Below are positions 5,325-45,887 of a stretch of 64,000 bases of DNA, one piece after another (positions within the stretch are counted from its first letter, which is position 1; each line of letters begins with the position of its first letter). The stretch is from a virus: positions 23,777-87,776 of IMG/VR virus record IMGVR_UViG_3300008267_000014. The stretch is one strand, 5' to 3'. The notes under the pieces were generated by a model, which searched no databases, was not told where the DNA came from, and saw only the letters and a list, made by a program, of their open reading frames with translations. Position numbers and translations under genes: made by a program.

Positions 5325-8300
5325 ATGTCAAATTCATATAGAATAAGAACAACACCTGGTGTTGATAAATCAGTTAAGGTAACATTAGAACAGGATTTTG
5401 AATTTTTAGAAATACTCTCATTAAAAGTATTACAAAGTCAAGTTTATACGAGAGTTTGTTCCGATTACGGTGTTATTGTAGGTCGTGTAAGTGTTAATAA
5501 CGGGTTTGGTATTCCAAACGCTAAAGTATCAGTATTCATCCCTTTAGAAGATTCTGATAGTGGTAACCCTGTAATTACTGAATTATATCCTTATAAAACT
5601 TTAAGTACAACTAATGATGATGGTTATAGGTATAATCTTTTACCAACTGAACCCTCATATAGTAACCATATTCCAACAGGTTCATTTTTCACTAGAGAAG
5701 ATGTTTTAACTAACCCTAATAAAATTGAGGTTTACGATAAGTATTATAAGTATAATGCCGTGACTAATGAAAGTGGTGATTATATGATTTTTGGTGTTCC
5801 GGTGGGTTCACAAACAATTGTTGTTAATGTTGATTTATCTGATATTGGTGAGTTCTCATTATCACCTCAAGATTTAATTAGAATGGGTCGTGCTACCGAA
5901 TCACAAGTAAGTGGTACTAAGTTTAAGTCTTCCGCCAATTTAAATGAATTACCTCAAATTATAACTATAAATAGAACTTTAGATGTTGAACCTTTTTGGG
6001 GTGATGAAAGTGTTTGTACGTTAGGTATTACAAGAACAGATTTTGACTTATCAGATGAGGCGAATATTGATATTCGACCTACAGCAATCTTTATGGGTTC
6101 TATTTTATCAACTAATGACGATTACAGTCTTAAAGCGAATTGTCGACCCGCATTGAAATCGGGTGAATTATGTAGTTTGGTTGTTGGTCCTGGTGAGATA
6201 TTAGCAATTAGACAAACCATTGATATTGATAATAATGGTAGACCTATATTAGAAGAATTTAAATTAGAATCCGGTGGTAAAGTAATAGATGATAACGGTA
6301 CTTGGTTAATTGATGTACCAATGAATTTAGATTATGTTGTTATAAATGAATTTGGTGAGAGAGTTTTATCTAACGACCCTAAAGTTGGGATTCCAACTAA
6401 AGGTAAATATCGATTTAAAGTTAAATGGGGACAACCTCCTACATTATCGGAATCAGTTAAAAGAGCATATTTTTTAGTTCCTAATATAAAAGAGTATGGG
6501 TGGGTGACATCATCGGATGACCCATTATATAAGTCATTCACTACTGACGAATATGAAAGAGTTAAAAAATCATATACGTTTAGTTTAAATTGGGATGATT
6601 ACGGTAGTATTGATAATACGACAGGATTACCTGATACTATCGGGTTACAAATGATACAAGAAGCGATTGATTGCGAAGACAGATTTTATGATATGACTTT
6701 CAATAAAGTTTATACTGTGTCACAAATGATAACTCAATATCGAAAAGGTACTGCCAAAAGAAGATTCATTTCAATAAAAGATATTGTTAATGATACTTGT
6801 GAGAGTGAAAATTACAAATTTCCAACTAACGATGCTTATAAAAAAACCGACATTTTATTTTTAGTATTTACAATATTTAGTTTATTGTTTAGACCTACAT
6901 TATATGTTTTAGTTTTATTATTACATATATTATCATTTATTGTTGTTTACATTTTAGTACCCTTATTAACTTTATTAGTTAGATTAATACAGGCGGTTGC
7001 AAAAATAGTTCAGAAACTGGCTAGTTTGGTAAGTATTAGCATTTCATTACCTAATTTTAGTGAACTTTTAGATAAACTTAACGATATTAAAAACCGGTTT
7101 ACTAATTTCAAAATACCTAATTTAACATATCCTGATTGTGAATTATGTGACTGTAACGACCCATCAACCCAAAGTCCTGATAATACACAGACAATACCGG
7201 GGTCTATTAATCAGACTAATGAAATAATAAATACAGATGGGAGTAATTTATTATTACCGATTAGTAATGTTATTATTTATAATCAAATAACAGGGTATGA
7301 TATAAGTGTTAATGAGTTACTTTCTGGATATCAGATACCTATGACAGGTAATATACCTAATTATGTTGGTACTCCTTATCCTATACCTAATCCTAATAAC
7401 GCTAATAGTGGTTTACAAACCGATTATTATTTTACAAGCGATTTACCGTTATCGGAAAGACTTAATTTATTTAACACTAAATCTAAATATTTTAATAATG
7501 TTGTCGGTGGTGGTGTTAATCAAATAAAAGTTAAATTCGATACTGTTTTAAATCCATCACCAAGTAAGTACCATTTAGATAATGTTATGGTGGTTATGGT
7601 GTCTGAAAATCAAATTAATAAATTTAGTAGTGGACAGATATTATCATTTCAGGATGTTAAATTATCGGGTGATATAAATATTAATACTGATGAAATAAAT
7701 GATTATGGTACTAATAGTATTACAGGTAGTACGTTATTAAATGATACTATAATTACGCAAAAAACAATAACTTATTCAGACCCTAATGGAGGACCAACGT
7801 ATTTAAGTGTTGTTTATAATTTAACAGGTAAAACATCTGATAATGAATGTAAATACGCTAGATATCCTGTAGATATTGAATATTTCCAAGTAATAACAGG
7901 TGTTACATATAATAATTATACGGCACATACCGACACATCATTAGTCAATTCTTTAAATACACGTTTTTTAAATAATGATACGTATATTAACACAATTAAT
8001 TCATTAATGAATGTCCAAGGGCTTAATAATGGGTGTGCGACAAATCAGAAATTTGTAAAACCTATTAACTTAATTAATGGATATGAAAAAAAATATATTG
8101 TTTTTTTAGTGAGAGGTGTAGACCCTAATTCCACTAGAGTGAAATGTGAGTACGATTTAAGTAAATTATTTGGATATAATAATTGGGGTTATATTAAAGT
8201 GAGCGGTTTATTTAAATTAAATATTCCTATTCAAGGAACGCCTCTAAATATTAAACATACCGTTAATGATAATAATACTATTGATACATATAGTAATTTG

Positions 8301-10292
8301 AAACTTTTTTACCCATCTATGTTTTTCCAACCTGGTAATCAAATGTCAGGTTTTACAACATCATTACCTAAATACTATTCTAATTTAGATAATACAACTA
8401 TACCGTCTAATTTAGGGGTAATTAATGATGTTAATTATGGTTTAAAAATTAAAAATGATAATGATTATACGTTAGAATGGGTTAAGCATACTATAGATAC
8501 GGCTTGTAATGTTAGTGGTGATTTAACATATGCCCCAATCCAAACCCAACCGTTGAATAATTCTAGAACGTACATACCTTTTGAACCTATCGAAGGTGGT
8601 TCATTTATGTATTTAAATGTAAGTTTTAATCATTTACCATTTGTAAAGTGGCCGACCAATCAAATTAACATTAGTTACTATAGTAGAAAATACAATAATA
8701 ATGTTAATATATTACCTAGTAATAATTTAACTAACAATATAGTAATGAGGTCAGATAGATTGCCGACTTCAACCATGGTATATGAACCTAAAAAAGGTAA
8801 TGATAATAGTTATCTACTTAATTCTAATCCTATCACGTCTGTTTATTTAGTGAGTGATGATGGATTTATTTCTTCTTCTAATAATGTTACTAACGAAATT
8901 GGTGATGATATACCGGTAATAATACCAAATCCTTTATTAAATAGTTTTAGTTGTAATGGGTTAGTCCCTTTAAATTGTTATTATAATTCAGGTGGTACTG
9001 TCAAAATACAACCATCAGGTAATAGTTGTTATAAACATAATGATGGTAATTTAAAATTAGAAAATGGGTGTTATATATTAGTTACCACACCTATTAAAAC
9101 ATTATTGAGTGATTTTAGTGTTATTACCGAATGGTTGAGTCGATTAACAATTAGTTTTGCGGCATGTAGGAACGTTTTTGGTCATATATTTACAAATAAT
9201 TGGGTAAATGGAACTTTATATGCGTTTAGTTTTAAAAATAACAGATATTTTAATTCTAAGAATGTTCCTTATTCTGTATATTGTAAAGATAATCTATTTT
9301 TTGATAACACAGAAACTTATAATTTTTATTATAGGTGTAGTCCATGGGATTTTACAAATAAAAAATTTATAGGTAAAAATAGTCCTGGATATGATGGAAA
9401 CGAAAAAAATTTACTATATCCTACAACAATAATGGATTTGGGACCTAGAGATTTTTACTCACAAGAAATTGCATTGTCAAACAATTTTGATGGTTATGTA
9501 ATGAAAAATTTAAATAACACTAGTTTTGGTGATGTATCAGAAATACTTAATTTGTTTATTATTACTAGACTTACAAATAGCTCATTTATACAAAAATTAA
9601 TCGCTGGTACAACAGTAGATAGTTTTTTTAGTCGTAAAAATAGAATGATTGACGGAGATTATGCTCAGATGATTTCAATTAATTCGGAAGTCGGTGTAAC
9701 ACCTTTTGAAGCTGAAAATTATCCTAACCCTAATCAGATTTATTATAACGGTGGTGCATCTACAGATGGTGTGTTTGGAATATTTTTTAGTTCAGATACT
9801 CAAGTTAGGGATTATTTAACCCCTAAAAGAACAATAAACGTTAATAACTTACCTATCACTAATTCTTGTTCGTTTGAATATATACCGGTTAAATCACAAA
9901 TAGTACCATTTTATCAGTGGGATGTTAAACAAAATAGTGATGGTGATAGTATATTTGGCTCTCAATTAAACAATTGGTTTACTAATGAAGTTGATACGAA
10001 TGGGTTTTTTAGTAGTAGATATCAATCGATGGATAGAATCCAACCGGTATCTAGATATTTTAGAGGGAATAATATGACTCAAACTAATTATTATAAAGGA
10101 TATATTTATTCTGTTGATAATAGTGGTAATTTAAGTGGGTCGGTATCAAATTGGAATCAAAATTCAGGTATTTATAGTAGAGCAATTACTAATGGTGCAC
10201 CGTTTCACTTCTTTTTTGGTTTAAAACGAGGGAAATCGGCTTTCGATAGGTTCACTACTAAATGGATTGACACAACAAATGAAAATGATTAA
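5325..10292 (+). CDS. Large baseplate/tail-associated structural protein (1655 aa) with an internal hydrophobic segment
   Basis: Long ORF in the baseplate operon. N-terminal prealbumin/carboxypeptidase-regulatory-like strands (GRVSVNNGFGIPNAKVSVF, TNESGDYMIFGVPVG); ~65-aa hydrophobic stretch at nt ~6852-7050. Confidence 0.65.
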   Translation: MSNSYRIRTTPGVDKSVKVTLEQDFEFLEILSLKVLQSQVYTRVCSDYGVIVGRVSVNNGFGIPNAKVSVFIPLEDSDSGNPVITELYPYKTLSTTNDDGYRYNLLPTEPSYSNHIPTGSFFTREDVLTNPNKIEVYDKYYKYNAVTNESGDYMIFGVPVGSQTIVVNVDLSDIGEFSLSPQDLIRMGRATESQVSGTKFKSSANLNELPQIITINRTLDVEPFWGDESVCTLGITRTDFDLSDEANIDIRPTAIFMGSILSTNDDYSLKANCRPALKSGELCSLVVGPGEILAIRQTIDIDNNGRPILEEFKLESGGKVIDDNGTWLIDVPMNLDYVVINEFGERVLSNDPKVGIPTKGKYRFKVKWGQPPTLSESVKRAYFLVPNIKEYGWVTSSDDPLYKSFTTDEYERVKKSYTFSLNWDDYGSIDNTTGLPDTIGLQMIQEAIDCEDRFYDMTFNKVYTVSQMITQYRKGTAKRRFISIKDIVNDTCESENYKFPTNDAYKKTDILFLVFTIFSLLFRPTLYVLVLLLHILSFIVVYILVPLLTLLVRLIQAVAKIVQKLASLVSISISLPNFSELLDKLNDIKNRFTNFKIPNLTYPDCELCDCNDPSTQSPDNTQTIPGSINQTNEIINTDGSNLLLPISNVIIYNQITGYDISVNELLSGYQIPMTGNIPNYVGTPYPIPNPNNANSGLQTDYYFTSDLPLSERLNLFNTKSKYFNNVVGGGVNQIKVKFDTVLNPSPSKYHLDNVMVVMVSENQINKFSSGQILSFQDVKLSGDININTDEINDYGTNSITGSTLLNDTIITQKTITYSDPNGGPTYLSVVYNLTGKTSDNECKYARYPVDIEYFQVITGVTYNNYTAHTDTSLVNSLNTRFLNNDTYINTINSLMNVQGLNNGCATNQKFVKPINLINGYEKKYIVFLVRGVDPNSTRVKCEYDLSKLFGYNNWGYIKVSGLFKLNIPIQGTPLNIKHTVNDNNTIDTYSNLKLFYPSMFFQPGNQMSGFTTSLPKYYSNLDNTTIPSNLGVINDVNYGLKIKNDNDYTLEWVKHTIDTACNVSGDLTYAPIQTQPLNNSRTYIPFEPIEGGSFMYLNVSFNHLPFVKWPTNQINISYYSRKYNNNVNILPSNNLTNNIVMRSDRLPTSTMVYEPKKGNDNSYLLNSNPITSVYLVSDDGFISSSNNVTNEIGDDIPVIIPNPLLNSFSCNGLVPLNCYYNSGGTVKIQPSGNSCYKHNDGNLKLENGCYILVTTPIKTLLSDFSVITEWLSRLTISFAACRNVFGHIFTNNWVNGTLYAFSFKNNRYFNSKNVPYSVYCKDNLFFDNTETYNFYYRCSPWDFTNKKFIGKNSPGYDGNEKNLLYPTTIMDLGPRDFYSQEIALSNNFDGYVMKNLNNTSFGDVSEILNLFIITRLTNSSFIQKLIAGTTVDSFFSRKNRMIDGDYAQMISINSEVGVTPFEAENYPNPNQIYYNGGASTDGVFGIFFSSDTQVRDYLTPKRTINVNNLPITNSCSFEYIPVKSQIVPFYQWDVKQNSDGDSIFGSQLNNWFTNEVDTNGFFSSRYQSMDRIQPVSRYFRGNNMTQTNYYKGYIYSVDNSGNLSGSVSNWNQNSGIYSRAITNGAPFHFFFGLKRGKSAFDRFTTKWIDTTNEND

Positions 10293-12058
10293 TGGGAAAT
10301 GTAAATGATATTAGAATTGTATTAGGTAGTTTAAGATATAAATCAGCGTCAGACACTGATTCATCTATCCAACTACCTTTAGTACAAACTGTTAAAGAAA
10401 ATATTGAATTTGATAGAACAATTAATGTTGATTTAGCAGAAGTCTATGATAAAGAAAGACAAGAATCAACAATAGTTAGACCTACTTGTAAGTTTTCAGT
10501 TTTATTTAAAAATTCATATACAGGAACAACAAACTATACACCATTTAAAAATAATTTATATTACGTAAATGCGTCTAATACCGCGGCTTTACAATGTAAT
10601 AGTAATTCTAATTCTGTCTTATGGGGTGGGTTTCCACAGTATAATGAATTTGATTTTATAAGAAACGATTATAATGTTTCAGGGTATACTTTACCGCCAA
10701 ATAATCATATTGATTTTGTGGCTAAAAGTGCCTCTACCTATAATTGGAATTTTTTTATGAGTTATCCGTATAGTAATAACTTAACAAAAAAAATGAGTGC
10801 GTATAATCCTGATTATGGTGTAACATTAAATTGGGTTGCCGGTGACGGATTACCTTTTGTCATCACTAACGCATCTGAAGGTGGTAATAATATCGTTAGT
10901 CTAAAATCACCATTAAAACATGGTTTATCAATTGGTGAATATGTTAAATTAAGTATTAGTTACAATAATAATCAATATTATCAGGTTTATTCTTTGGGTG
11001 ACTTTGGAGGTAATAATAGTGATTATATTTTTAATATATTTAATTACGGTTTTACAGGGTCTACGTTTAGTGACGGTATTAATGGTACGTTTGTTCGAGT
11101 TGTTGATATAAACAATACGGGAGATACGACTTCAAAGTACTATGTTAAACAAATTAAATTGTTAACTAATGTTGATGATGCGGTTATGACTAAAGCCGGA
11201 TTTGAACAAAATATTTTTGGTGGTAGTAAAAAATTTGAAAGTAGTGGATTAACACCTAATCATATTGAAAGAGTTTCTATTAAAGAAGGTGCTCAATCAT
11301 ATACATTATCATTTAATAAGGATTTTGATATAAGTGAAATACGAGATAATCAAAAAAGACCTATAACTGAATTATTCTTTACTGTTATTTGGAAAGGGTA
11401 TTTTGGATGGACATTCGGAATACCTAATGGAATTAATTATTATGGATTGAAACAGGGTTATGAATGTAACTTACAGTTGATAAATAATTTACCAAATACA
11501 TGGTGGACTAATTCTAATTCTGATAATAGAACTAATTTCCCTATGGGTACTTATACAACACCATTAGGGACTAAACCTTTTACTTATATTAAATCACTTA
11601 AAGCTGGTGATATTATTGACGGTGAATATTGTGAATTTAATGATTTTGAGCAAACCGAAAGAGTAATTAGTCCAATATATCACAAATTCACATTTAATCC
11701 ATTTGTGTTTAATAATAAAGGAAATTTACCAAATTCTAATAATTTATTTGGGTATTATTATGAACCACATCATAAAATAACAATTAAAGAATATTCTGAA
11801 TATGTTGAAGAAGGTGATATAGATTCTGTTGATAATGTCCCTGACTATTCATACTTCTCAACCACTAAAAATTCATTTGTATGGAAAGATATTTATCCTT
11901 ACGGTTATATTGATTCTAATAATGTTGGTGTTGATTATCCATTTGTTAATGGTAAACATTACCCACATACTAATACAATTTTTAGAATAATCCCTGAAGG
12001 TACTAATTTCATAAACAATACGACTGTAGCTGAACCGACAATTGATGGATGCGAATAA
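10292..12058 (+). CDS. Putative virion structural protein (588 aa)
   Basis: TAATG stop/start coupling to the upstream gene; N/T/Y-rich beta-type composition. Confidence 0.6.
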   Translation: MGNVNDIRIVLGSLRYKSASDTDSSIQLPLVQTVKENIEFDRTINVDLAEVYDKERQESTIVRPTCKFSVLFKNSYTGTTNYTPFKNNLYYVNASNTAALQCNSNSNSVLWGGFPQYNEFDFIRNDYNVSGYTLPPNNHIDFVAKSASTYNWNFFMSYPYSNNLTKKMSAYNPDYGVTLNWVAGDGLPFVITNASEGGNNIVSLKSPLKHGLSIGEYVKLSISYNNNQYYQVYSLGDFGGNNSDYIFNIFNYGFTGSTFSDGINGTFVRVVDINNTGDTTSKYYVKQIKLLTNVDDAVMTKAGFEQNIFGGSKKFESSGLTPNHIERVSIKEGAQSYTLSFNKDFDISEIRDNQKRPITELFFTVIWKGYFGWTFGIPNGINYYGLKQGYECNLQLINNLPNTWWTNSNSDNRTNFPMGTYTTPLGTKPFTYIKSLKAGDIIDGEYCEFNDFEQTERVISPIYHKFTFNPFVFNNKGNLPNSNNLFGYYYEPHHKITIKEYSEYVEEGDIDSVDNVPDYSYFSTTKNSFVWKDIYPYGYIDSNNVGVDYPFVNGKHYPHTNTIFRIIPEGTNFINNTTVAEPTIDGCE

Positions 12059-12851
12059 TAGATATAGAATTAAATTAACTAATGATAATAATCAGTTTAT
12101 TAACATACCTTTAGAAATTAAATGGGATTTCACAGGTAGAGATGATAGTATTGAGTTATATGAAGATGAAGTTATTGGTGGAATTTTAGGAAGTCCCAAA
12201 GATTATGAAATTATGCGATTCGCACATGATTCGCATATTGGTAGTAGTAGAACTGATGTTAATTACGAGTTTAATTTTTTTGGTGGGACTAAAATAGATA
12301 TTCCTACTTCAACTATAACTGATTGGTCTTCTAGTTATCTAAAAGAAGGTTTTACCCAAACTCAAGTTTATTATTATGAAAAACCTTTTACTAAATCTTT
12401 CTTTAAATTAGATTTTTACGATACAACTGATGTTAATACACAAACAATTTATATGACTATTATAATACCTGTTCAACAAGGGTTTACTGAGAATGTGTTA
12501 ATATCGAGTTATTTGTCATCGGTTAAAATTAAAAAACCGACATTTAAATTAGATTACGTTGGTGATAAAGAAGGTTTTTTTATTTATTGGTTAAGAAAAG
12601 AAGAGATTAATGATTTAACCACTTTTTATATGAGTGCTAAATTTTTTGATGCTAGATTAGGTGTTTTTGTTAAAATGATGACAGTGCCACAATCTAACTT
12701 ACCTGATAGATTTAATTTTGACGCTAATAAGTATTTTTATTATAAACTAAAAATTAATAGAGATAATTATACTTATTCGGTGTTTGATTTAAACAATGTA
12801 AGGATTGGTGATACAAACCCCATAAAATGGTATGAATATGTTAATCCGTAA
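12045..12851 (+). CDS. Putative virion structural protein
   Basis: ATG at 12045 overlaps the upstream stop; FTKSFFKLDFYDT motif; operon context. Confidence 0.6.
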   Translation: MDANNRYRIKLTNDNNQFINIPLEIKWDFTGRDDSIELYEDEVIGGILGSPKDYEIMRFAHDSHIGSSRTDVNYEFNFFGGTKIDIPTSTITDWSSSYLKEGFTQTQVYYYEKPFTKSFFKLDFYDTTDVNTQTIYMTIIIPVQQGFTENVLISSYLSSVKIKKPTFKLDYVGDKEGFFIYWLRKEEINDLTTFYMSAKFFDARLGVFVKMMTVPQSNLPDRFNFDANKYFYYKLKINRDNYTYSVFDLNNVRIGDTNPIKWYEYVNP

Positions 12852-14035
12852 TGCAAGATAGAGTTTATAATTATAAAATTTCACCTGATGTTATTAGTAA
12901 TAAGATTTTTATTACTGATTATTATATTAATACTGAAAATAATGAAGAATTTGTTGTTTGTTGTGATGTAATTACAAGTGCAACAACTGAAACATTAACA
13001 GGTCAAACGTATGTTTATTCATCGATGACCCAAATATTGTCGGGAGGAACTAACGGGACTTCACTATTAACGGGTATGACTATACCTATCTTTTTAAGTG
13101 AGAATACTGTTGATATTGGATACTATTCAACATTTGATGGAATGGTGGTTCAGAAAGATGTAATGACCAATTTTATTTTTTCATCGAATACGTTAAATCC
13201 ATATTTGGTTCAATTGTATAATACATCTGATATTGAATTTAAAAAATATCTTTCATTTAGTGAGTATAAGATAGATTGGGGTGATAGTACACCAATTGAA
13301 ACTTTAACTGTATTTAGTCCTAATTTTTACCCACACACTTATACACAATCTGGTAATTTTAATATTGTTATGTCAGGTATAAGTCCATGGGGTGTTAATC
13401 TAATAAAAAAAACTGTTACAGTACCTTATAGTGATATTACTATTACAAATCCTAACGGTACTGCTTATTTCTATCCATCAGGAGGGTCTTGGTCAGGAAC
13501 ACCGTTAATGTATGACTATATTTTTAGCGGCGATAGCGAATGTGAAACTCAGTTACAGATAAATAACCAATTTACTTCAGTCCCTATCGTAATTACAGGA
13601 TTTACTAATTCAACCATGAACGATTTAAGTCAATATGGTAGTAAAAATAATCCTGCTTTATTTGCGGGTAAGTTTAAAATAGGTATAGAAGTAACTGCGA
13701 ATACTAATACAATAGGTACTTTTTGGGGGCCTTCAAATGATGGATTGTATACAGGGTATACTATAAATGGTATTGATTACTATGATTATAATGATGGTAC
13801 AACTATTTTTATTGCGAAATCATCAGGGTTAACATCTGATATGTTAATTTGTTCAGCAATAACTAAAAACGAAACGTTATTAAATGTAATAGACGAACCT
13901 GAAGTACAATCTAATGTCTACATAGAACGTGGGAAAACTTCGGGATTAGAATCGTTACAAAGACTTGGTGAAGTGGATAACGTGGGTGACTTAGAAAAAT
14001 ATGGATATGGTTTTTTTAATGTCACAAAAACATAA
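12851..14035 (+). CDS. Putative structural protein with a PKD-like domain
   Basis: IDWGDST...HTYTQSGNFNI matches the PKD WGDG/HTY..G.Y pattern; TAATG coupling. Confidence 0.6.
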   Translation: MQDRVYNYKISPDVISNKIFITDYYINTENNEEFVVCCDVITSATTETLTGQTYVYSSMTQILSGGTNGTSLLTGMTIPIFLSENTVDIGYYSTFDGMVVQKDVMTNFIFSSNTLNPYLVQLYNTSDIEFKKYLSFSEYKIDWGDSTPIETLTVFSPNFYPHTYTQSGNFNIVMSGISPWGVNLIKKTVTVPYSDITITNPNGTAYFYPSGGSWSGTPLMYDYIFSGDSECETQLQINNQFTSVPIVITGFTNSTMNDLSQYGSKNNPALFAGKFKIGIEVTANTNTIGTFWGPSNDGLYTGYTINGIDYYDYNDGTTIFIAKSSGLTSDMLICSAITKNETLLNVIDEPEVQSNVYIERGKTSGLESLQRLGEVDNVGDLEKYGYGFFNVTKT

Positions 14036-28021: not shown

Positions 28022-28058
28022 AAAAGTCAGATTAAAGAAATCTGACTTTTATTTTTTT
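28022..28058. terminator. Bidirectional terminator between convergent fibre and FkbM genes
   Basis: AAAAGTCAGATT (28022-28033), 5-nt loop, AATCTGACTTTT (28039-28050), with A/T runs on both sides. Confidence 0.75.
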
Positions 28059-28712
28059 AGGGTCTATATATTGTTCACAATATTCTAATAGGTTTTTAGG
28101 TGTATTGATTTCATCATTTTTTAATGTATGAAATTCCCCTATTAAGTATTCTATTTTATTAAATAATTCAGGATTTATATTTTTAAGAATATCATATTCC
28201 GCCCCCTCACAGTCTATTTTTAATAGTTTAATTTTATTAACCTTTTCAGTTTTTAAAATGTCATCTATAACTACATTAATGGGTAATGATTTAATAATAT
28301 TTTTATAGTATAAACCAACGGGTTCTTCATATACAAAAGATGAACCACCTGTATTACCAACTGGCATATTCATTATAACATCTCTACCATCAGAAGTGAT
28401 TGCGTTATTAAAAATCCTTACATTATTTATATTATTTAATTGAATGTTTTTACTTAAACAATGAAATGTATTATATGTTGGCTCAAATGAAAATATTTTA
28501 CAATTAGGATTAACTTTAGATAAATAAGTTGAAACAACACCTACGTGAGCCCCAATGTCAATAATAACATCATCATCATTTATTTTTAATTCATTTAGAT
28601 GGTATTCTTCTTTCAGTTCTTCATAAATCCAATATACTGAATTTGATTTTTTATGGTCGTAAAATTTAATACGTTCATCTAGTATTCTTATTTCTTTAAG
28701 TGAGTTTATCAT
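28032..28712 (-). CDS. FkbM-family SAM-dependent methyltransferase
   Basis: IIDIGAHVG, FSFEP, and LLKIDCEGAEYDIL...IGEFH motifs. Confidence 0.92.
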   Translation of the reverse strand: MINSLKEIRILDERIKFYDHKKSNSVYWIYEELKEEYHLNELKINDDDVIIDIGAHVGVVSTYLSKVNPNCKIFSFEPTYNTFHCLSKNIQLNNINNVRIFNNAITSDGRDVIMNMPVGNTGGSSFVYEEPVGLYYKNIIKSLPINVVIDDILKTEKVNKIKLLKIDCEGAEYDILKNINPELFNKIEYLIGEFHTLKNDEINTPKNLLEYCEQYIDPKKIKVRFL

Positions 28713-35913: not shown

Positions 35914-38304
35914 TTAAAAATCGAATTTTACGATAAATTGCTGAATACCTTGTCTAAGAGTTGGAGATTGCAGCTTAGATATAATCATAAGATTTTTATT
36001 TGAGTCGTAAAGACTAATTTCTGTAATATATGATTTTGTACCTTTAGTCCAAGTAGGATTAGATGAAGTTAAAAATTCAGATTTTGATAAGTTTAATTTA
36101 TATTTCATTTCATAAATTGTTGCTTGTATATCAGTTTCTAAATTACCATAGAAATAATATTCATCTCCAAAATTAAGAGTTTGACCTGTATCACCAATCG
36201 TTGATAATGGTATATAATCATTTAAATCATAAAAATCGGCGGCATCATAAGCGTCTTTTGTAATAACAAATGTTGTACCTGTTAATGTATTTTGTGTTAG
36301 ATAACCATTAACTGTTGTCGCACTTACTTGGTCTGTAACGTCAATAATTCTCCATTCATCAGATAGCGGTCTTGTATCACCTGATACTTTTTGACAGATA
36401 AGTTCAATTTTTTCGGCAAAAAAACCTTCTTTAAATGTATTATCGTAATCAGTCAAACAAGGGAAATTACCCCCAAAACTAACACCTACATTATCTGAAT
36501 TCGAAGTACTACAATCATTAGGTCCAAAAATATTAACATAATAATTACAATGTATTGAATTGGTAAAAGCGCTTGTATTTGTGAATCTGTACGTTACGTA
36601 CATGTTTTCACTACCGCCTGATAATACACCTATATTACTACCATTACTTGAACCACATGTGTTAGGTGATACTAAATTTAGTTTAGGGGCTGGTAATGTC
36701 CAATTACGATTAGATTTATATGACATTGCGGCAACGATTTCTTCATCGTCTATAATAATGATATGGTCGTCAGGAAAAACTTTACCAATTCTACTTGGTA
36801 ATCCATTAGACACTACATGTGTATCCCATAGATTAAAATATCTTAAACCAGGTGTGTTCATGTCCTCATTTTTAGTTGATTTTAAATATTCGACTTGAAA
36901 TAAATCAACATCATCAAAATTAGGTGGGTCAACCCAAAAAGTTTCACCATAACAACATTCAGGGTTTTTATGCCACATTAACCAAGGAATGTGTAGTTTG
37001 AAATTTCTAGCTTCACCTGTTGAACTTGTTGGTGATGATGGGTCAAATGGTTCTAATGCGAATTTTTCACCATAGAATGAATCTATAGTTTGATTCGTAT
37101 AATGTATCACAGCAATTGCTTTTTGTTTTTCAGGTGTTACTGTAACTTTTTGATTAAATGAGTCATAAAAATAAACAGAATCAGTATCTGTTTGACCACT
37201 AGAATTCATGTAACCAAAATATTCTTTAGCACCAATATAATTTATTGAACCAAAACCTGTGTAATCAACATTAATTGATGATACGATACCTGCAGGACTT
37301 TCAGACCAAGGAATATTCATATTCCAAATCTTAACGTTAAACTCGTCTTGATTACATACCGATTCAAAATTAATAACATCATCACTCCAATGATTAAGAG
37401 GTGTGACGCTATCATATAAATCAGTCATAGTATTAGGATATACAATTACCCTAGCATAACAACTTGTGAATGATATTGATGAATAATCAGGGACTGGTCT
37501 ATCTAATGTATAACTATCATTACATATATCAACAATTCGATATGTTAACATAGGGTAACAAGAACTCATTGTCATTGAACATTCTGTTGAAACAACAGGT
37601 GTTGGGTTAGGACAATATGTTGCCGAAGGGGTTGGTGTTGGTGTTGGTGATGAACAAGGTGTACCACTAACAGGTGTTGCTGATGGTGTGGGTGTCGGTG
37701 TTGAATATTGAGAACTTGTTGGTGTAGGTGTTGGTAAATTAATACAACTACAATTATTATCGCCTAATTTATCATAGTAAATTGTGATAAAATCGCCAAT
37801 TGATGGTGAACTATAATTGGTTGGATTACAATTTAAATTGATTACTTTTATTGTTGTACCACCTGTTAATGTTGACATGTCAATAACGTAATTAGAGTTA
37901 ACAACATAATCATTTCCGGTTAGAGTACTCCAATTAGTTGGTAATGATGTAGTATCACCGGTAAAGAAACCTCTCATAGCCGCTGTATTATAAATTGGGC
38001 TAACTACTGAATCCATATATGGAATACCGTAAGTGTTTCCAACAGTACCATCAACATAATATGGGTATTTTACGTTACCTTTATTAGATTGTGGTACACC
38101 ACTACTATTTTGAGAATTAAATGATGGTGTTAATACCATACTGTTAGATTGTTGGTAGGTTGAGGGTAAATTATTATAATTTATCTCACTATCCCCAATT
38201 TGAAAGTAACTAATATTAAAAGTACCTTGAGATAATTTTTGTCTTGCGGTATCGGTTAATTTTGTATTTACTAACGCTGATGTATTTTTTAATATAAATG
38301 ACAT
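35914..38304 (-). CDS. Baseplate/tail-fibre attachment-like structural protein (796 aa)
   Basis: N-terminal KLTDTARQKLSQG.F.ISYFQIGDSEINY and C-terminal YITEISLYD..NLMIISKL..P.R..F.VKFDF resemble tail-collar/fibre-junction domains; internal Thr/Pro linker. Confidence 0.6.
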   Translation of the reverse strand: MSFILKNTSALVNTKLTDTARQKLSQGTFNISYFQIGDSEINYNNLPSTYQQSNSMVLTPSFNSQNSSGVPQSNKGNVKYPYYVDGTVGNTYGIPYMDSVVSPIYNTAAMRGFFTGDTTSLPTNWSTLTGNDYVVNSNYVIDMSTLTGGTTIKVINLNCNPTNYSSPSIGDFITIYYDKLGDNNCSCINLPTPTPTSSQYSTPTPTPSATPVSGTPCSSPTPTPTPSATYCPNPTPVVSTECSMTMSSCYPMLTYRIVDICNDSYTLDRPVPDYSSISFTSCYARVIVYPNTMTDLYDSVTPLNHWSDDVINFESVCNQDEFNVKIWNMNIPWSESPAGIVSSINVDYTGFGSINYIGAKEYFGYMNSSGQTDTDSVYFYDSFNQKVTVTPEKQKAIAVIHYTNQTIDSFYGEKFALEPFDPSSPTSSTGEARNFKLHIPWLMWHKNPECCYGETFWVDPPNFDDVDLFQVEYLKSTKNEDMNTPGLRYFNLWDTHVVSNGLPSRIGKVFPDDHIIIIDDEEIVAAMSYKSNRNWTLPAPKLNLVSPNTCGSSNGSNIGVLSGGSENMYVTYRFTNTSAFTNSIHCNYYVNIFGPNDCSTSNSDNVGVSFGGNFPCLTDYDNTFKEGFFAEKIELICQKVSGDTRPLSDEWRIIDVTDQVSATTVNGYLTQNTLTGTTFVITKDAYDAADFYDLNDYIPLSTIGDTGQTLNFGDEYYFYGNLETDIQATIYEMKYKLNLSKSEFLTSSNPTWTKGTKSYITEISLYDSNKNLMIISKLQSPTLRQGIQQFIVKFDF

Positions 38305-39490: not shown

Positions 39491-39494
39491 ATTA

Positions 39495-39950: not shown

Positions 39951-42146
39951 CTATATAATATAATATGGGTTAACATATGTTGCAACACCACCTTCGAAAG
40001 TGTATGCTAAATTCCAATAATATAATGGCATACCGTTAGAGACCTCTTTTCCGAATATTTTAAAATCATCGTAATTTGATGGTGCGTTATGTAAAACGAC
40101 ATAAAATGAAGAATGATATTGGTTATAAGTTGTCCCATCATCATCTCTTGGGTATAATGTTGGTAAATCAGGACAAACAATTGAAACTAAATTAGGTATC
40201 GATTCATTATTACCGAAAGAATCTGAATAAAACGGATATGTTGTAACTTGTTGTTTAATTATTGAACTTTTTTTTGTTGTTATTTGAGCATCGGGGATTA
40301 AATTAGGATAATCAACAAAATTAACACCTTTAATATAATTAAAAGGCTCTTCACATTTAGTACCAATTGACCAAGAATATGAAAATGGTGAAGTATAAGT
40401 ATTATTGTTAACTGAACTAACTATAGTATCGATAGTATTATAACAAGTTCCTGAACTACATACATCAGTGCCACCTGTAAATTCAATATGTCTTACCATA
40501 TTAGGCATTGTAATTTGAATTGTATATGTTCCACCTGTTGATGAATACGTTATATTAGAATGTTGTGATATTGATATTTGACGATATTGTGTATTATCGC
40601 CGCATAAATCACTACCTGTTATATTACTTGGAAAAACAAAACCCCATTCTTTGTAATAACCAACTTCTGTGTCAGGTACACTTGTTGTAAAAAACGACCT
40701 AATATATTCTAATTTATCATGATAAAAATTATAATCATTGATATTATCAAATTGTAATGTGATAATACCTGTACCACCAACACCTGTATTGGTTTTCGTA
40801 AGGGTTATATTACCACCATCTTGAGGAGCACAAGAGTTACCGACACCAAATGGTGTTATTACGTATTCACAACCTCTGACATTATATTTGAATTCTAAAG
40901 AAACTGAACTGGTGTTAAAATCAAAAGTCGAATTAGTATAATCAACAAGTGTTTGTGGTGGTGACCCACTACATCCGCTAACTTGAAACGATATTGTTTT
41001 AGCACTACATACTATTGGTGAATTTATAATTGACGATTCTATAATCTTCAATGACTCGTTTAAGTAATCATTATTACATGAGTAACAATCTATAGTATCT
41101 AAACATGCAAAATTTAAATACCAGTTAGTTTGAGAGTTACCTGAATTCGGTATGACTTCAATTAACAATCTATCATTAGCCGACCTTGTTAATCCTGTTA
41201 ACGTTACTATTTTACGAAAAGGTCCCCAATAATTTGTATTTGGAATATCATATGGTGTCCAAACGTTACCAGGGTATGGGTATAAACCAGAACCCATGTT
41301 CCACCAATCTAATACAATTGGTCTTTGATACGCATCACCATAATATGTTAGTTTAAATTCATCTGTTATTGTTACAGCATCAAAACTCCATGCAAAAAAG
41401 TTAGTATTGCCCGATAATTTAAAGGTAGCTGCTACCCCTTTTGCCGGTGCGTTAAATCCGTTTGCAACAAATGATAATTGGTGTGTATATTTTTCTGTTG
41501 GATAATTACCATTATCACAAGTGTATGCGGATATTGATACTTGAATACCTGATAGACAATCTAAATAAGCGTCTATCTCACCAGGCGTTTCATTATTATA
41601 TGAAAATTTTTTCCCATCGTAATATAGATTGCTAATAATTGGGAAATAATAACCTTCTTCTAATGGTATTGCACTATCATTTAAAATTGGATGTGTGAAT
41701 GAATAACCTGAAAATTCAGAGCCATAACCTGATGTAAATGATAAAGGTAATGAATTTGAAAAAACTGATGTTTCACTAGGTCCGTACCAATTAATTTTAT
41801 AACTACTGATAGGTGTTTCACAACTACCGGTTAAGTTACCGACACTTAAACGACCAACTGTTGATGCTGAATATAAATCAAAATCAAATGAGCAAATTTC
41901 ACATATGTCGTTATCTTGGATTGGTATTGTACAATAACAACCTGTGTTGGTATCTCTAAGTCTAATACTGGTTGTACCATCAGGGACATCAACTCTATAA
42001 GGACAATTAGGTTCTGTTACTGAATCTAAAGTTATTTGACTTTCTATTGGATTAATAGTATCTAAATCTGAATACACAATAAACGGACCTGTTAGTCCAG
42101 GATATGAGTTTAGATTAGTTAAACATATTTGAATTCTTTTTGACAT
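39951..42146 (-). CDS. Cys-rich putative virion surface protein (731 aa)
   Basis: Long ORF in the minus-strand structural block; small N-terminal beta domain (GPFIVYSD...VDVPDGTTSIRL). Confidence 0.55.
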   Translation of the reverse strand: MSKRIQICLTNLNSYPGLTGPFIVYSDLDTINPIESQITLDSVTEPNCPYRVDVPDGTTSIRLRDTNTGCYCTIPIQDNDICEICSFDFDLYSASTVGRLSVGNLTGSCETPISSYKINWYGPSETSVFSNSLPLSFTSGYGSEFSGYSFTHPILNDSAIPLEEGYYFPIISNLYYDGKKFSYNNETPGEIDAYLDCLSGIQVSISAYTCDNGNYPTEKYTHQLSFVANGFNAPAKGVAATFKLSGNTNFFAWSFDAVTITDEFKLTYYGDAYQRPIVLDWWNMGSGLYPYPGNVWTPYDIPNTNYWGPFRKIVTLTGLTRSANDRLLIEVIPNSGNSQTNWYLNFACLDTIDCYSCNNDYLNESLKIIESSIINSPIVCSAKTISFQVSGCSGSPPQTLVDYTNSTFDFNTSSVSLEFKYNVRGCEYVITPFGVGNSCAPQDGGNITLTKTNTGVGGTGIITLQFDNINDYNFYHDKLEYIRSFFTTSVPDTEVGYYKEWGFVFPSNITGSDLCGDNTQYRQISISQHSNITYSSTGGTYTIQITMPNMVRHIEFTGGTDVCSSGTCYNTIDTIVSSVNNNTYTSPFSYSWSIGTKCEEPFNYIKGVNFVDYPNLIPDAQITTKKSSIIKQQVTTYPFYSDSFGNNESIPNLVSIVCPDLPTLYPRDDDGTTYNQYHSSFYVVLHNAPSNYDDFKIFGKEVSNGMPLYYWNLAYTFEGGVATYVNPYYII

Positions 42147-42158
42147 AAATTATTAATT

Positions 42159-45100
42159 TTATAAACCACCTAAATCAGTTATGGTCCAATTATAAGTGTT
42201 AGTTAAAATATCTCTTGAAGGACCTGAGTTTGAGATAAAATAATATGAATCACCACCATTAAATACAACATCGTTTCTAACTGATTGAGATGCCCATCCA
42301 TTTAATAATGAATCATATGAAAAATACGATAATGGAACATTTAAAAACATATTTTCAGCATATACTAAATCAGTTACATCCCAACCACCAATATTTTGGT
42401 CGAATGATAATGCATTTGCGAACATGTTATATGTATTAGTTACTTTCCAACTTGGTATTGGTTGATTAAATGACGTAGCACCTGAGAACATATTTGCTGT
42501 ACTAATACCGGTTACAATCCAGTTACCAATCGAAGGACTACCACCATTATTGAAAGATGTTGCGTTTACAAACATTTCAGATAATGAGTAATCTGTATTA
42601 TAAGCGTTATATATATTACTAATATCCCAGTCACCTATATTTTGATTAAATGATGTTGCGTTTCTAAACATTCCGTAGAAACCATTGGAATTACTGGTTA
42701 TCCAATTATTTAAAGGTTGGTTAAATGATGTTGCATAAGCGAACACTTCCTCCATATTATAAACTTGACTAACGTCCCAATTATTTATTGAAGAACTACC
42801 TCCGTTATTAAAAGAAGTTGCTCCTGAAAACATACGATACATATTTGTTAAACCACTTACATTCCAATCACCTAAATCTTGATTGAAATTCGTAGCACCA
42901 TTGAACATGTGTGACATCTGAGTTACATTACTAACGTCCCAATTATTTAAAGGTTGATTGAATGATGTTGCGTTAGCAAACATTGAGTCCAAATAATAAA
43001 TATTACTTGTATTCCACCCATTTAATGGTTGGTTGAAATTTGTTGCGTTAGCGAACATATAACCGATATTTGTTGCTCCGGTAATATTCCAATTATTTAA
43101 TGGTTGGTTGAAATTTGTTGCGTTATAGAACATTGCACCAAAAGTTTCTACATTACTAACGTCCCAATTATTTATTGAAGGGCTTCCGCCATTATTAAAT
43201 GATGTCGCATTACGAAACAAACCGTTCATTTCAATAACATTACTGACATTTAAATTACCAATATCTTGATTAAATGATGTTGCACTATAAAACATATTTG
43301 TAATGATAGTTCCTGGTTTAAATACCCATTGTTCAAAATTATTAATAGTTGTTAATGAAATACAATATTGGAATAAACTTTCTAAATAATATGATATATT
43401 TGTTGGAACATCCGTAACCGAAGATAAATCTAAATTAACGTATGCATAAAAATCATACTCGTTTAAATCTATGTCACCCCATTTAGTTATTGATATTGTT
43501 TTTCTTGACCCATTATAATTATAAAACCTAAATCTACCATCGATTTTAATAGTATAAACACCTGTTGATGTGTAGGTGTGTTTATGTGAGAAAAAACTAC
43601 CGGCTCCGATAGTCATTACAGTACCATCACCCCAATCAATCGTTGACCCTGAGTATGAATATATCGTAATTGCAAATTGTCTATTACCTAATTGGTAATC
43701 AGGTATTGTGGTATCTATAATCATCGTAAATGGATTAATCATTGGTACCGGTGTTGGATATGGTGTTGTAGTCGGTGTTGGTGTTACAGAAGTTGATGTT
43801 GGTGTTTGTGTTGGTAAATCAATATATGTAAATCCGGTAATACCGCAATCATCGTGAGGTGTTGCAAATGGAGTCCTTGTTTGAGTTACCGTTGGTGTAA
43901 CTGTTGGTGTCATTGTGTTGGTTGGAGATAACGTTGGTGTAATAGTCGGTGTTTGAGTAACGGTTGGTGTTGCGGTTTTTGTCGGCCTAGGTGTTGGTGT
44001 GTTAGTTTTTGTAACAGTTGGTGTTATGGTTGGTGTTGCGGTGTTCGTTTGTGTAGGAGTTGGCGTAATATAAATTGACCCTGATGATGATAATGTGGGT
44101 GTATTTGAAGATGTTATTGTGTTTGTAGGTGTGATAGTTGGTGTTATTGTGTTTGTAGGTGTAAAAGTTGGTGTTATTGTGTTTGTAGGTGTAAAAGTTG
44201 GTGTAGGTGTTCTTGTTGGTTCACATATCACGCAATTTATAGAAATTGAATTTAATATGATTGTATTCGCACCTGTAATGTCAGTAGTGGTTCCTAAATA
44301 AGTAACACATTTAGTATTACCATCAACATCGGCGTTAAATACCATACCAATCTCAATTGAACCACCACCTGGTACTATTAAAACATCATTAGTTGTATAT
44401 AGTATATTAGGGTCATTACAATCTGAGAACTTTTTACTAATAGGGCAGTTAATGTAATCATTAATAGTATTAAAAGTAACATCACCTGAGAAATTAAAAG
44501 GTCTATCAATAATACCTGATTGTGTTGGAGTAACTGTTGGCGTTGCTGTAGGTGTTGGTGTATATTTAACAACATTAGCATCGATTATAATACTATTACA
44601 TACATTAGTCGATGTTGGTGTTGGTGTCGGTGTAGGTGTTGATGATGTTGTAGGTGTTGGTGTCGTACAATCAACGGGCGAACAATCAAAAAATGTATTA
44701 AAATCTAAAACTGAACAATTATTAGTTGGTGTTGGAGTTGGTGTAGGACAAATCCCTACCGATAAGTATTCATCAAATAAATCAGGACAATTACTATAGC
44801 ATGGTGATTTACCGGCCAATAAACAGTCACCACCCAAAGTATTCGATAAACACCATTGGTTAGACGTGTATTTATAATAAAGGTAATAACCATTAGTACT
44901 ACCAGTCCAATAAGGTGCTGTATAATACGTTCCCGCTAATGTAAAATTATCGTTATATATATCAAACCCTGTATTAGTTAAACAATAAAATTCTTCAGTA
45001 CATGGTTCAGGACAATCACATAAAATATCACTTTCATTTATAATACCATATTCAGATTCTGTAGTTGGGTAACTTGATGAACAAACAACTACAGATGTTG

Positions 45101-45608
45101 AGGCTGAAACTGTTATAGGGGATATCGTTCCATAACAACAAGGTGTAAATGTGAAATCAATAGATTCCGTTTCGTTATTATTAGTTAATGTAAATTCTTT
45201 ACAATAACAACAAATTGGGTCTTCTTCAACTATACTAATATTAACATACTCACCAAAAGTACCGTTAGGATATCTAGTACTACAAATAGTAATACTATCA
45301 CCAAAACCTATTGTTATTGGTGATGTTAATTCTTCATCACAACAAGGTTCAAAATTAATTATTGCATCTGTTGTTTCTGAGTTATTATTAATGTTATATC
45401 TATAACAGTAACATGGCGGTGTTTCAGTTAATTCAATTAAGAAATCACTACCTATTTCACCAACAGGTGCTGAATTTGAAAGAATAGTAAATGACCCTTC
45501 AGGTGATACTGATAATGGCGAACTTAATTCTTCCGTACAACAAGGTTCAAACGATATCGTTGATAATTCCGCTCCTTGATTAGTTATCGAATATGCTTTA
45601 CAACTCAT
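42159..45608 (-). CDS. Modular surface protein: Cys-rich triple repeat, Thr/Pro stalk, PKD-like domain, DUF285/BspA-type repeats
   Basis: Three C..Y/F.I.N...F.PCC....SP units; TPT linkers; IDWGDG..HTY..GVY; about ten MF.NATSFNQPL.NWDVSNV repeats. Confidence 0.8.
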   Translation of the reverse strand: MSCKAYSITNQGAELSTISFEPCCTEELSSPLSVSPEGSFTILSNSAPVGEIGSDFLIELTETPPCYCYRYNINNNSETTDAIINFEPCCDEELTSPITIGFGDSITICSTRYPNGTFGEYVNISIVEEDPICCYCKEFTLTNNNETESIDFTFTPCCYGTISPITVSASTSVVVCSSSYPTTESEYGIINESDILCDCPEPCTEEFYCLTNTGFDIYNDNFTLAGTYYTAPYWTGSTNGYYLYYKYTSNQWCLSNTLGGDCLLAGKSPCYSNCPDLFDEYLSVGICPTPTPTPTNNCSVLDFNTFFDCSPVDCTTPTPTTSSTPTPTPTPTSTNVCNSIIIDANVVKYTPTPTATPTVTPTQSGIIDRPFNFSGDVTFNTINDYINCPISKKFSDCNDPNILYTTNDVLIVPGGGSIEIGMVFNADVDGNTKCVTYLGTTTDITGANTIILNSISINCVICEPTRTPTPTFTPTNTITPTFTPTNTITPTITPTNTITSSNTPTLSSSGSIYITPTPTQTNTATPTITPTVTKTNTPTPRPTKTATPTVTQTPTITPTLSPTNTMTPTVTPTVTQTRTPFATPHDDCGITGFTYIDLPTQTPTSTSVTPTPTTTPYPTPVPMINPFTMIIDTTIPDYQLGNRQFAITIYSYSGSTIDWGDGTVMTIGAGSFFSHKHTYTSTGVYTIKIDGRFRFYNYNGSRKTISITKWGDIDLNEYDFYAYVNLDLSSVTDVPTNISYYLESLFQYCISLTTINNFEQWVFKPGTIITNMFYSATSFNQDIGNLNVSNVIEMNGLFRNATSFNNGGSPSINNWDVSNVETFGAMFYNATNFNQPLNNWNITGATNIGYMFANATNFNQPLNGWNTSNIYYLDSMFANATSFNQPLNNWDVSNVTQMSHMFNGATNFNQDLGDWNVSGLTNMYRMFSGATSFNNGGSSSINNWDVSQVYNMEEVFAYATSFNQPLNNWITSNSNGFYGMFRNATSFNQNIGDWDISNIYNAYNTDYSLSEMFVNATSFNNGGSPSIGNWIVTGISTANMFSGATSFNQPIPSWKVTNTYNMFANALSFDQNIGGWDVTDLVYAENMFLNVPLSYFSYDSLLNGWASQSVRNDVVFNGGDSYYFISNSGPSRDILTNTYNWTITDLGGL
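44112..44204 (-). repeat. 30-bp tandem repeat x3 in the Thr/Pro stalk
   Basis: TGTTATTGTGTTTGTAGGTGT(A/G)A(A/T)AGTTGG repeated, encoding TPTFTPTNTI. Confidence 0.85.
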
Positions 45609-45671: not shown

Positions 45672-45887
45672 TTAAACGGATAATGTGTCGTATTTGACAC
45701 AACCATTGTTATCAACTATTTTTAAATTAAATTCATTTTGACTATTCATTATAGTTGGAACATCGAATGAATATGGAAATGTTGAAATAGTATCAATATA
45801 AACACACACTGTTGAAAGATTATCACAAAGATAAATGTTAAAAGGTGTTGTCCCTGTGATGTTATTTATTGTTATATTTGTTGGCAT
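45672..45887 (-). CDS. Small stand-alone domain protein (71 aa), paralogous to the N-terminus of 33300-35255
   Basis: Start moved to MPTNI (45887), just downstream of TATTTAT. ITGTTPFNIYLCD....C aligns with [14 protein letters not shown]....C. Confidence 0.65.
   Translation of the reverse strand: MPTNITINNITGTTPFNIYLCDNLSTVCVYIDTISTFPYSFDVPTIMNSQNEFNLKIVDNNGCVKYDTLSV

Follow-up and report, generated by a model that had tools for sequence, protein, structure and literature searches.

The autotransporter AIDA-I is heptosylated at serines lying in the sequences QNSGGA and NTSAAV, i.e. Ser followed by small residues at a beta-helix turn, and TibC, a bacterial autotransporter heptosyltransferase (BAHT), is reported to modify Ser and not Thr (PMC4358343). 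An N-terminal beta-barrel, a beta-hairpin thumb and iron-finger insertions build the BAHT dodecamer (PMC4358343). Among phages, mycobacteriophage glycosyltransferases have been proposed to decorate virion proteins, where the glycans are carried by capsid and tail-tube subunits at their C-termini (Freeman et al. 2023, cited by PMC12619734). Here we analysed a stretch of viral DNA of 64,000 nucleotides (nt), hereafter the window, taken from one viral contig of 87.8 kb (bases 23777-87776 of IMG/VR record IMGVR_UViG_3300008267_000014) with about 30% GC. The tetrapeptide motif [ST][GA]xT recurs in its tail and fibre proteins, among which a glycosyltransferase (GT) homologue and an FkbM-family methyltransferase are encoded. 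An initial annotation of the window had proposed that the motif is an O-glycosylation sequon for a phage-encoded, methylated glycan coat. We found that the motif is more narrowly defined than first described (hydrophobic-[S/T]-[G>A]-{not P}-T), that it characterises distal tail and fibre proteins at the protein level whatever their fold, and that the GT/FkbM pair is an accessory, optional cassette.

Motif enrichment in the fibre block

The window carries genes for NrdA, a T4-type gp25 and a gp6/Baseplate_J protein ahead of a 40-kb block of large orphan open reading frames (ORFs) at 5325-45608, hereafter the fibre block. The relevant features are as follows, with motif counts given as observed vs expected in whole-protein shuffles and lengths in amino acids (aa); ORFs are named below by their first coordinate.

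296-2863, NrdA, no motif sites
2950-3408, gp25, no motif sites
3414-5252, gp6, no motif sites
5325..10292, plus strand, 1655-aa baseplate-distal protein after gp6, 6 vs 1.8
10292..12058, plus strand, 588-aa protein with no known domain, 6 vs 0.73
12851..14035, plus strand, 394-aa protein with PKD-like WGDG..HTY segment, 9 vs 1.0
14080..14988, plus strand, 302-aa ORF, motif-free
14988..18044, plus strand, 1018-aa protein, 5 vs 1.2
18044..20278, plus strand, 744-aa protein with SprB repeats and Ig-like domains, 12 vs 2.7
20336..22297, plus strand, 653-aa protein, first gene of the accessory segment, 6 vs 1.6
22331..25744, plus strand, 1137-aa fibre with Cys-rich SHAEG repeats of YadA/BpaC head type, 12 vs 7.7 (not significant alone)
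25761..28004, plus strand, 747-aa tail fibre with GNVGIGT-type repeats, ends in SGQTF, 11 vs 3.4
28032..28712, minus strand, FkbM-family methyltransferase, 226 aa
28709..29617, minus strand, GT-B, GT9-like glycosyltransferase homologue by fold match, 302 aa
29706..33254, plus strand, 1182-aa SHAEG-repeat fibre, paralogue of 22331, ends in SGITF, 20 vs 7.7
33300..35255, plus strand, 651-aa Thr/Pro protein, 1 vs 2.2
35914..38304, minus strand, 796-aa protein with a short Thr/Pro (TP) tract, 8 vs 1.6
39951..42146, minus strand, 731-aa protein, 7 vs 1.45
42159..45608, minus strand, 1149-aa protein with TP tracts and DUF285 repeats, 8 vs 4.3
50307-52646, Rad50-like ORF, no motif sites

Pooled over 16 ORFs of the fibre block, [ST][GA]xT was observed 112 times against 37.8 expected (z 13), and the remaining 26 ORFs of the window held 3 sites against 4.6 expected. 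The same shuffles showed an excess of 3-9x in ten unrelated ORFs of the block. The initial annotation had noted this contrast between structural and non-structural proteins, and its counts by hand (9 sites in 12851-14035 and 11 in 25761-28004), the absence of sites from NrdA, gp25, gp6 and the Rad50-like ORF, and the SGQTF and SGITF ends of two fibres were all reproduced exactly. It had also described the motif as frequent in six further ORFs, which held for 18044, 29706, 35914 and 39951, whereas 22331 and 42159 showed marginal enrichment only.

The proteins are rich in Ser, Thr and Gly, and the paralogues 22331 and 29706 have internal repeats, so that the excess might have arisen spuriously from composition, from local low complexity, from paralogy or from a signal in the DNA. 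This explanation can practically be dismissed. Shuffling within blocks of 60, 30 or 15 residues left the pooled expectation at 37-38, with z about 12 even at 15 residues, ruling out composition and local low complexity. Paralogy was ruled out because 22331 and 29706 are the sole paralogue pair among the block ORFs (25761 and 29706 have a short C-terminus in common), and removal of 29706 left 92 sites against 30 expected. The pair sub-patterns were flat ([ST][GA] 0.99x, [GA]xT 1.19x, [ST]xxT 1.08x), whereas the full motif reached 2.9x and, with a hydrophobic residue ahead, 6.5x. The enrichment is therefore a three-position effect, and pairwise residue bias was ruled out as its source. Motif Ser codons were AGT in 35% of cases vs 36% in the background, so that selection acts on the protein and not on the DNA, and a DNA-level signal was ruled out as well. 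A longer periodic repeat was likewise excluded, as a dominant spacing was absent.

Related patterns in the window showed no enrichment, namely [ST][GA]xS (0.79x), [ST][GA]T (1.1x), [ST][GA]xxT (0.76x), the reversed form (1.05x) and the NxS/T sequon (1.0x). The Bacteroidota sequon D[ST][AILMVT], from which the motif had been said to differ, was indeed found at expectation (49 vs 47.7, 1.03x). Among single-residue forms SGxT, TGxT and SAxT were enriched, and TAxT was not.

Residue preferences of the motif

A position scan covered 110 sites in the window and about 1,800 in a sister clade. At position -1, W, L, Y, V, I and F were enriched 6-11x, with a hydrophobic residue at 65-67% of sites compared to 32-34% in the background. 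Hydrophobicity was also elevated at position -3 in the window; outward of -1 the flanks were otherwise nearly uninformative. Position 0 was occupied by Thr and Ser (about 8x each) and by Cys (2x), and position +1 by Gly (7-11x) and Ala (2.4-5.5x), with Asn (0.9x) and Asp (1.3x) near background. Since Ala but not Asn or Asp replaces Gly, a small residue and not a left-handed turn former seems to be needed at +1. Position +2 accepted any residue but Pro, and position +3 strongly preferred Thr (6-8x) over Ser (1.5-1.8x). Conserved sites showed the same pattern, with S/T swaps at 0, G/A swaps at +1, a free +2 and Thr in 85% at +3. The sequence context of the sites suggests strand ends. An AlphaFold model of ORF 12851 was too poor for site mapping (predicted local distance difference test, pLDDT, 47).

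Distribution of the motif in the lineage and outside

In IMG/VR at least 596 contigs encode a gp6 about 80% identical to that of the window. Pooled motif enrichment in orthologues was 7.5x for 12851, 5.2x for 10292 and 2.4x for 5325, values that are pseudo-replicated by shared ancestry. The 42 orthologues of 10292 together held 135 sites vs 26 expected. The 44 orthologues of 5325 held 0-12 sites each, mostly 3-12, spread over 83 alignment columns, which indicates high site turnover. In 12851 eight of the nine sites were kept in at least 82% of 28 orthologues, and the motif Thr was 87% conserved vs 47% for other Thr. The best-conserved gene of the block was the motif-free ORF 14080, with 76-85% identity in relatives vs 40-63% for its neighbours; neither a Pfam match nor a family or fold assignment was obtained for it, a protein-atlas search being uninformative. 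The complete genome G007 has an ORF of the same size.

The large ORFs neighbouring 80 IMG/VR loci of the GT family fell into two groups, with motif ratios of either 2-7 or 0.5-1.8. All five motif-rich records tested encoded a gp6 40-49% identical to that of the window, and none of the five motif-poor records tested held a gp6 homologue. This split indicates that being motif-rich is one lineage trait and did not originate several times independently. The lineage with the motif spans gp6 identities of 40-87% to the window, and its sister clade shows the same logo (SGxT 760 vs 141, TGxT 814 vs 162 expected). Fragments make up most of the contigs of this lineage. In the complete 357-kb genome G007 the sites are concentrated in fibre ORFs, about 20 in number, that lie close to gp6 or within an operon at 118-155.5 kb; the sheath was mildly elevated (6 vs 2.2), and major capsid protein, portal, tube and non-virion proteins were close to expectation. 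Among gp6 orthologues (L090-L169) a single site was counted in 79 proteins vs about 64 expected, again a pseudo-replicated figure, and NrdA and gp25 were also low.

Motif-rich proteins comprised SprB/Ig, PKD-like, DUF285, YadA-head, GNVGIGT fibre, DUF5122 beta-propeller, collagen-like and coiled-coil architectures, a diversity by which a single common fold behind the motif was rejected. Baseplate and fibre proteins of T4 were not enriched (gp34 1 vs 4; gp37 7 vs 3.4) and neither, at about 1.5x, was the tail module of immuto, a syntenic Flavobacterium phage. Together with the fibres of unrelated phages (0.79x) T4 excluded a general property of tail fibres, and immuto a general property of Flavobacterium phages. 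A motif scan of motif-poor clades gave tandem-repeat signals only and no alternative sequon.

A hydrophobic residue at -1, raised hydrophobicity at -3 and the dominance of Gly at +1 would also fit a purely structural strand-turn-strand junction that carries no modification, the cassette then doing something else. In such a junction the hydrophobic residue would end a strand, S/T would cap it, Gly/Ala would make the turn and Thr would begin the following strand, and the fibre proteins of the lineage would have inherited this arrangement or converged on it. Such a structural turn motif is nearly as likely as a modification site and, like it, falls short of being probable. In its favour are the conserved positions of eight of the nine sites in 12851, the persistence of the motif in two relatives without the cassette (see below), and a 664-aa protein of G007 in which the motif interrupts short hydrophobic strands every 8-12 residues. 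Several sites of 18044 (SGGT and TGLT, both preceding a PY-type segment) presumably also lie within its SprB repeats, of which we take SGGT to be a part. In anecdotal comparisons with the same repeat types outside the lineage, Gly was retained and the flanking Ser and Thr were not. The position of an SGGT of 25761 reads NN-TE or NGSE in a motif-poor fibre homologue, and that of an SGVT of G007 reads VGSN in a designed propeller. The retained Gly would suit a turn, but identical folds outside the lineage do without the S...T around it, and the T4 and immuto fibres are unenriched. Against a merely structural role are further Ala but not Asn or Asp in place of Gly, Thr far above Ser at +3, the exclusion of Pro at +2, and the occurrence in at least seven unrelated fold classes with no dominant spacing and high turnover in variable regions. 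Within the DUF285 repeats of 42159, two read SGLT or TGAT and the remaining ones SNVT.

The GT9-like and FkbM enzymes

The gene pair recognised by the initial annotation is present, the FkbM member by family profiles and the GT9-like member by structure only. The FkbM ORF matched PF05050 (E 8.7e-15, 55.7 bits vs a cut-off of 22.7) and TIGR01444 (104.6 bits vs 37.7), and it also matched the Vibrio cholerae RfbT-like family PF05575 (E 1.7e-6). Its start overlaps the GT stop by 4 nt (28709-28712), and both genes are antisense to the flanking fibre genes. The GT ORF had no Pfam match at E<=0.01, PF01075 included, and a PF01075 search of the window's own contig returned nothing. TIGR02201 gave a weak N-terminal match (19.6 bits vs a cut-off of 170). 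A profile search with the GT family against PDB sequences found no match, and a fold search alone succeeded. The AlphaFold model (pLDDT 91, predicted template modelling score 0.90) had its best Foldseek matches, at E values from 9e-13 to 1e-8, with the GT9 structure 3tov (E 9e-13), WaaF 1psw, WaaC 6dfe/2h1h and TibC 4rap (E 3e-9). ORF 28709-29617 is GT9-like by its predicted fold and not a GT9 member.

More than 377 metagenomic proteins belong to the GT family, in which 39 residues are invariant. Near the N-terminus it has a GGAGKN loop, with invariant G11 G12 x G14 K15. An hhalign alignment with a canonical phage GT9 (from the relative G005) placed K15 opposite the catalytic Asp of the IGD loop, at 89% probability over 69 columns only. 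This exchange of Asp for Lys may point to catalysis organised in another way, or to a glycine loop as in MurG. An invariant DSxxQHxAAA segment resembles what we take to be the nucleotide-sugar motif of GT9.

A modification site and its possible writers

We tentatively prefer to read the motif as a modification site served by interchangeable GT9-type enzymes. A sequon is plausible but unproven, and judged from sequence this reading stays somewhat below an even chance. The preference is based on the independence from fold, the small residue at +1, the exclusion of Pro, the strict Thr at +3 and the restriction to outer proteins. On this view, short strand-turn-strand loops marked by the motif would be recognised by, or act as acceptors for, a cytoplasmic enzyme that modifies Ser/Thr. 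The likeliest writer would be a soluble O-glycosyltransferase of the GT9 superfamily acting on fibre proteins before or during assembly, possibly in analogy to the TibC/AAH heptosyltransferases on autotransporter beta-helices. The GT9-like/FkbM cassette of the window might be one of at least two interchangeable versions of the enzyme set, in which the methyltransferase would cap the sugar, and it may have come in along with extra fibres on a 15-kb accessory segment. Shielding, stability or adhesion might be the purpose of the modification. The fuller version of this reading, a lineage-wide O-glycosylation sequon written in the host cytoplasm by two distant, interchangeable types of GT9-superfamily 'strand-loop-strand' transferases, often with a methyl- or sulfotransferase, and giving a decorated sugar coat on at least 12 fibres of jumbo Bacteroidota phages, is possible but rather doubtful.

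Each of the seven complete lineage genomes examined encodes one of two GT9-type enzymes, although five of them were found via the GT query and only two independently, by gp6 alone. The six complete sister-clade genomes (two chosen by gp6, four via GT) hold one GT9-like gene each and no canonical GT9. In the complete genome G021, canonical GT9 genes and FkbM stand in place of the GT9-like family, and the conserved block is motif-rich. G005, G024 and G021 (gp6 69-82% identical) all lack the GT9-like family and encode a canonical Pfam GT9 with FkbM 0.15-6 kb away. T4 and immuto have neither a GT9-type enzyme nor the motif. In a 37-kb co-directional fibre operon of G007 the GT is the only motif-free ORF of at least 200 aa.

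Several observations speak against such a link of motif and enzyme, besides the way in which most complete genomes were found. In the syntenic relatives G003 and G004 (gp6 82% identical) the whole 15-kb segment 20336-35255 is absent, i.e. three fibres, FkbM, GT, SHAEG fibre and TP stalk, and still their orthologues of 10292, 12851, 18044, 35914 and 39951 are enriched 5-8x. Orthologue counts there were 11 vs 1.4, 14 vs 3.7, 14 vs 2.0 and 11 vs 1.4; the orthologues of 35914 in the two genomes scored 9 vs 1.4 and 11 vs 1.4, and that of 39951 in G004 scored 14 vs 2.0. No GT9-type gene was found with the family profile or PF01075 in the 94-131 kb of G001-G004, contigs that are 32-45% complete, and this sample spans both positions where relatives carry such a gene. 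Unrelated phages with the same GT family beside their fibres show the motif at 0.79x. Three changes of state are required to place motif richness on the GT tree, in which the GT of the window clusters with motif-poor loci. The GT family has Lys for the catalytic Asp and lies below the Pfam GT9 threshold. A hydrophobic residue followed by S/T-Gly has the look of a strand-to-turn junction, and many sites are positionally conserved. Finally, GT9 and FkbM/RfbT enzymes classically act on lipopolysaccharide (LPS).

The window genes 35311-42146 also lie on the strand opposite to their G003/G004 orthologues, which together with the extra segment indicates an insertion plus inversion in the fibre block. 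DNA polymerase B, whose gene adjoins the GT in L086, the locus of an 82%-identical GT homologue, is encoded in G001, G002, G004 and G005. FkbM was next to the GT homologue in none of 80 IMG/VR loci, and a conserved GT-FkbM adjacency was rejected. With the segment missing from G003/G004 and the motif kept, the pair is no fixed part of the module as the initial annotation had assumed. Its idea of a sequon for a phage-encoded, methylated coat stands as far as the motif is real, specific and found on peripheral virion proteins, and is weakened in that the pair is accessory; its assignment of this particular pair as the writer of a methylated glycan at the motif stays a hypothesis.

For the cassette itself, remodelling of host LPS or another surface glycan with the virion proteins left untouched is an unlikely but live alternative, for example to prevent the adsorption of progeny to debris or to shut out phage competitors. 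It would agree with WaaF and WaaC as closest structures and with the match of the methyltransferase to the O-antigen methylase RfbT (PF05575), and also with a cassette that is accessory, mobile, variable in position and antisense to the flanking fibre genes. In other phages, however, the GT is co-directional with structural genes, lying either within fibre operons or between the genes for tail fibre and sheath, an arrangement that points to late expression together with them. Within the lineage the GT repeatedly adjoins SHAEG fibres, and its catalytic-base position is unlike that of LPS enzymes.

A modification or recognition site whose writer is not of GT9 type (another phage GT, a kinase or a host enzyme) is improbable. 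The motif is lineage-wide and GT9-type genes are patchy in the sampled fragments, GT homologues occur beside motif-poor fibres, and four core putative glycosyltransferase orthogroups have been described for large Bacteroidota phages (PMC12619734), all of which would suit such a writer. However, no candidate enzyme was identified, and the GT9-like gene is the one motif-free ORF of that size in the G007 operon.

A GT9-type gene together with a sugar-decorating enzyme recurs in three forms across phages:

form 1, GT9-like and FkbM, in the window
form 2, canonical GT9 and FkbM, in G005/G021
form 3, GT9-like, sulfotransferase, PfkB kinase and epimerase, in unrelated phages

The G021 cassette (303574-308823, L318) has the order GT9 (313 aa), a 1210-aa GT9-domain protein and FkbM. 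The FkbM of this cassette and its G005 counterpart (L275) is 29% identical to that of the window, and cassettes of this type, non-orthologous to the one in the window, occur in at least 39 IMG/VR contigs. The third form was annotated in full gene order in L025 only (IMG/VR 3300032116_000611, 110-14421), with about 20 similar loci. This motif-poor locus encodes a tail fibre (S74 chaperone), GT9-like, sulfotransferase, PfkB kinase, epimerase of the short-chain dehydrogenase/reductase family and sheath, which looks like a set for sugar activation, transfer and sulfation inside a structural operon. An ORF of about 272 aa directly downstream of the GT (the sulfotransferase in L025) recurs in most motif-poor loci.

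Our literature search returned no report of the motif, of a phage GT9 acting on fibres or of a sequon-directed glycan coat on multiple tail-fibre proteins. If the motif is a sequon, it would provide a sequence-readable marker of glycosylated virion proteins in metagenomes, extend the mechanism of autotransporter heptosyltransferases to viruses, and be relevant to the protection or tuning of adhesins in jumbo phages that abound in fresh water. Should it be only structural, it would be a sharp lineage-diagnostic signature of distal tail proteins that helps to annotate orphan ORFs. GT9-type and sugar-decorating cassettes beside fibre genes in unrelated aquatic phages represent a testable lead.

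Phage lineage and further features of the window

CheckV estimated the completeness of the window's contig at about 30%. The fibre block is followed on its 3' side by a primase, a Mre11-like phosphoesterase, the Rad50-like ORF and a DnaJ gene. By gp6 the closest cultured relative is Flavobacterium phage immuto, at 26% identity and with the same gene order. Large Bacteroidota-infecting 'moraphages' have been described, with chaperone genes reported in those of Flavobacteriia (PMC12619734). A full-length phage DnaJ is encoded at 61783-62700 (J domain, CXXCXGXG, C-terminal domain) and matches these reported chaperone genes. The window fits the 'moraphages' of PMC12619734 in its SprB repeats, in this DnaJ and in a Por_Secre_tail sorting domain that is matched weakly. 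The lineage consists of jumbo phages with a T4-like baseplate that are probably 'moraphage'-like and probably infect Flavobacteriia.

In ORFs 22331-25744 and 29706-33254, SHAEG lies in Cys-rich repeats that match the heads of the trimeric autotransporters YadA and BpaC, and the pattern SHxE occurs 77 times across the fibre block. Homologues of the SHAEG fibres adjoin the GT in sister-clade genomes (L014, L033, L004).

The long Thr/Pro tract described for the module was confirmed in 33300-35255, in which a head of about 70 residues and a tail of 20 residues enclose TPTxT repeats that run over about 550 residues and contain 43% Thr. Relatives encode Thr-rich proteins of 1706, 1634 and 1223 aa (G021:27616-32736; G003 61241-71124). 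Such long, mucin-like TPTxT proteins are encoded both near GT9-type genes and away from them, and G007 has none. A coupling of GT and Thr/Pro tracts was rejected, since G007 has the GT without tracts and G003 tracts without the GT.

A (G/A)TATTTAT box recurs 15-30 nt ahead of the start codons of structural genes, upstream of 2950, 5325, 14080, 20336, 29706, 33300, 39881 (minus strand), 45608 (minus strand) and 58063, and is probably a late promoter. Upstream of the GT gene there is a near-match only (TTATTTAA).

Comparison with known systems

With WaaC, WaaF and WaaQ (CAZy GT9, PF01075) the GT of the window shares the best structural matches (3tov, 1psw, 2h1h), but it lacks a PF01075 match, has GGAGKN in place of the G-D loop and is encoded in a phage structural module. 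The methyltransferase is a clear member of the FkbM family known from glycan loci (RfbT of V. cholerae) and is paired with a GT, although this pairing is not conserved at the 80 IMG/VR loci and the pairs of G005 and G021 are non-orthologous. The Bacteroidota sequon D-[ST]-[AILMVT] resembles the motif as a short Ser/Thr-centred sequence in surface proteins of the presumed host phylum. Its glycosylation takes place, however, in the periplasm, a compartment that structural proteins of a phage would not be expected to enter. Compared to the mycobacteriophage system, the sites in the window are internal tetrapeptides on distal fibres, the enzyme belongs to another family, and the putative system is a prediction from sequence.

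The GT differs from the BAHT in several respects. It has 302 aa vs 381-389 residues for the TibC chains in the Foldseek listing, and TIGR04414, the BAHT family model, does not match it. In the predicted structure the first element is a Rossmann strand (E4-9), with no N-terminal beta-barrel, and neither iron finger nor thumb was seen. Lys occupies the position of the catalytic base, Ser and Thr are equally common at position 0 of the motif, and the putative substrates are phage tail proteins. The likeness to TibC and AAH, which are encoded beside their adhesin substrates, lies in a soluble enzyme of GT-B type whose catalytic domain is GT9-like (4rap at E 3e-9), in a gene that adjoins those of adhesin-type beta-roll fibres and in many sites per putative substrate, and the acceptor serines of AIDA-I, located in strand-loop-strand turns, resemble positions 0 and +1 of the motif (PMC4358343).

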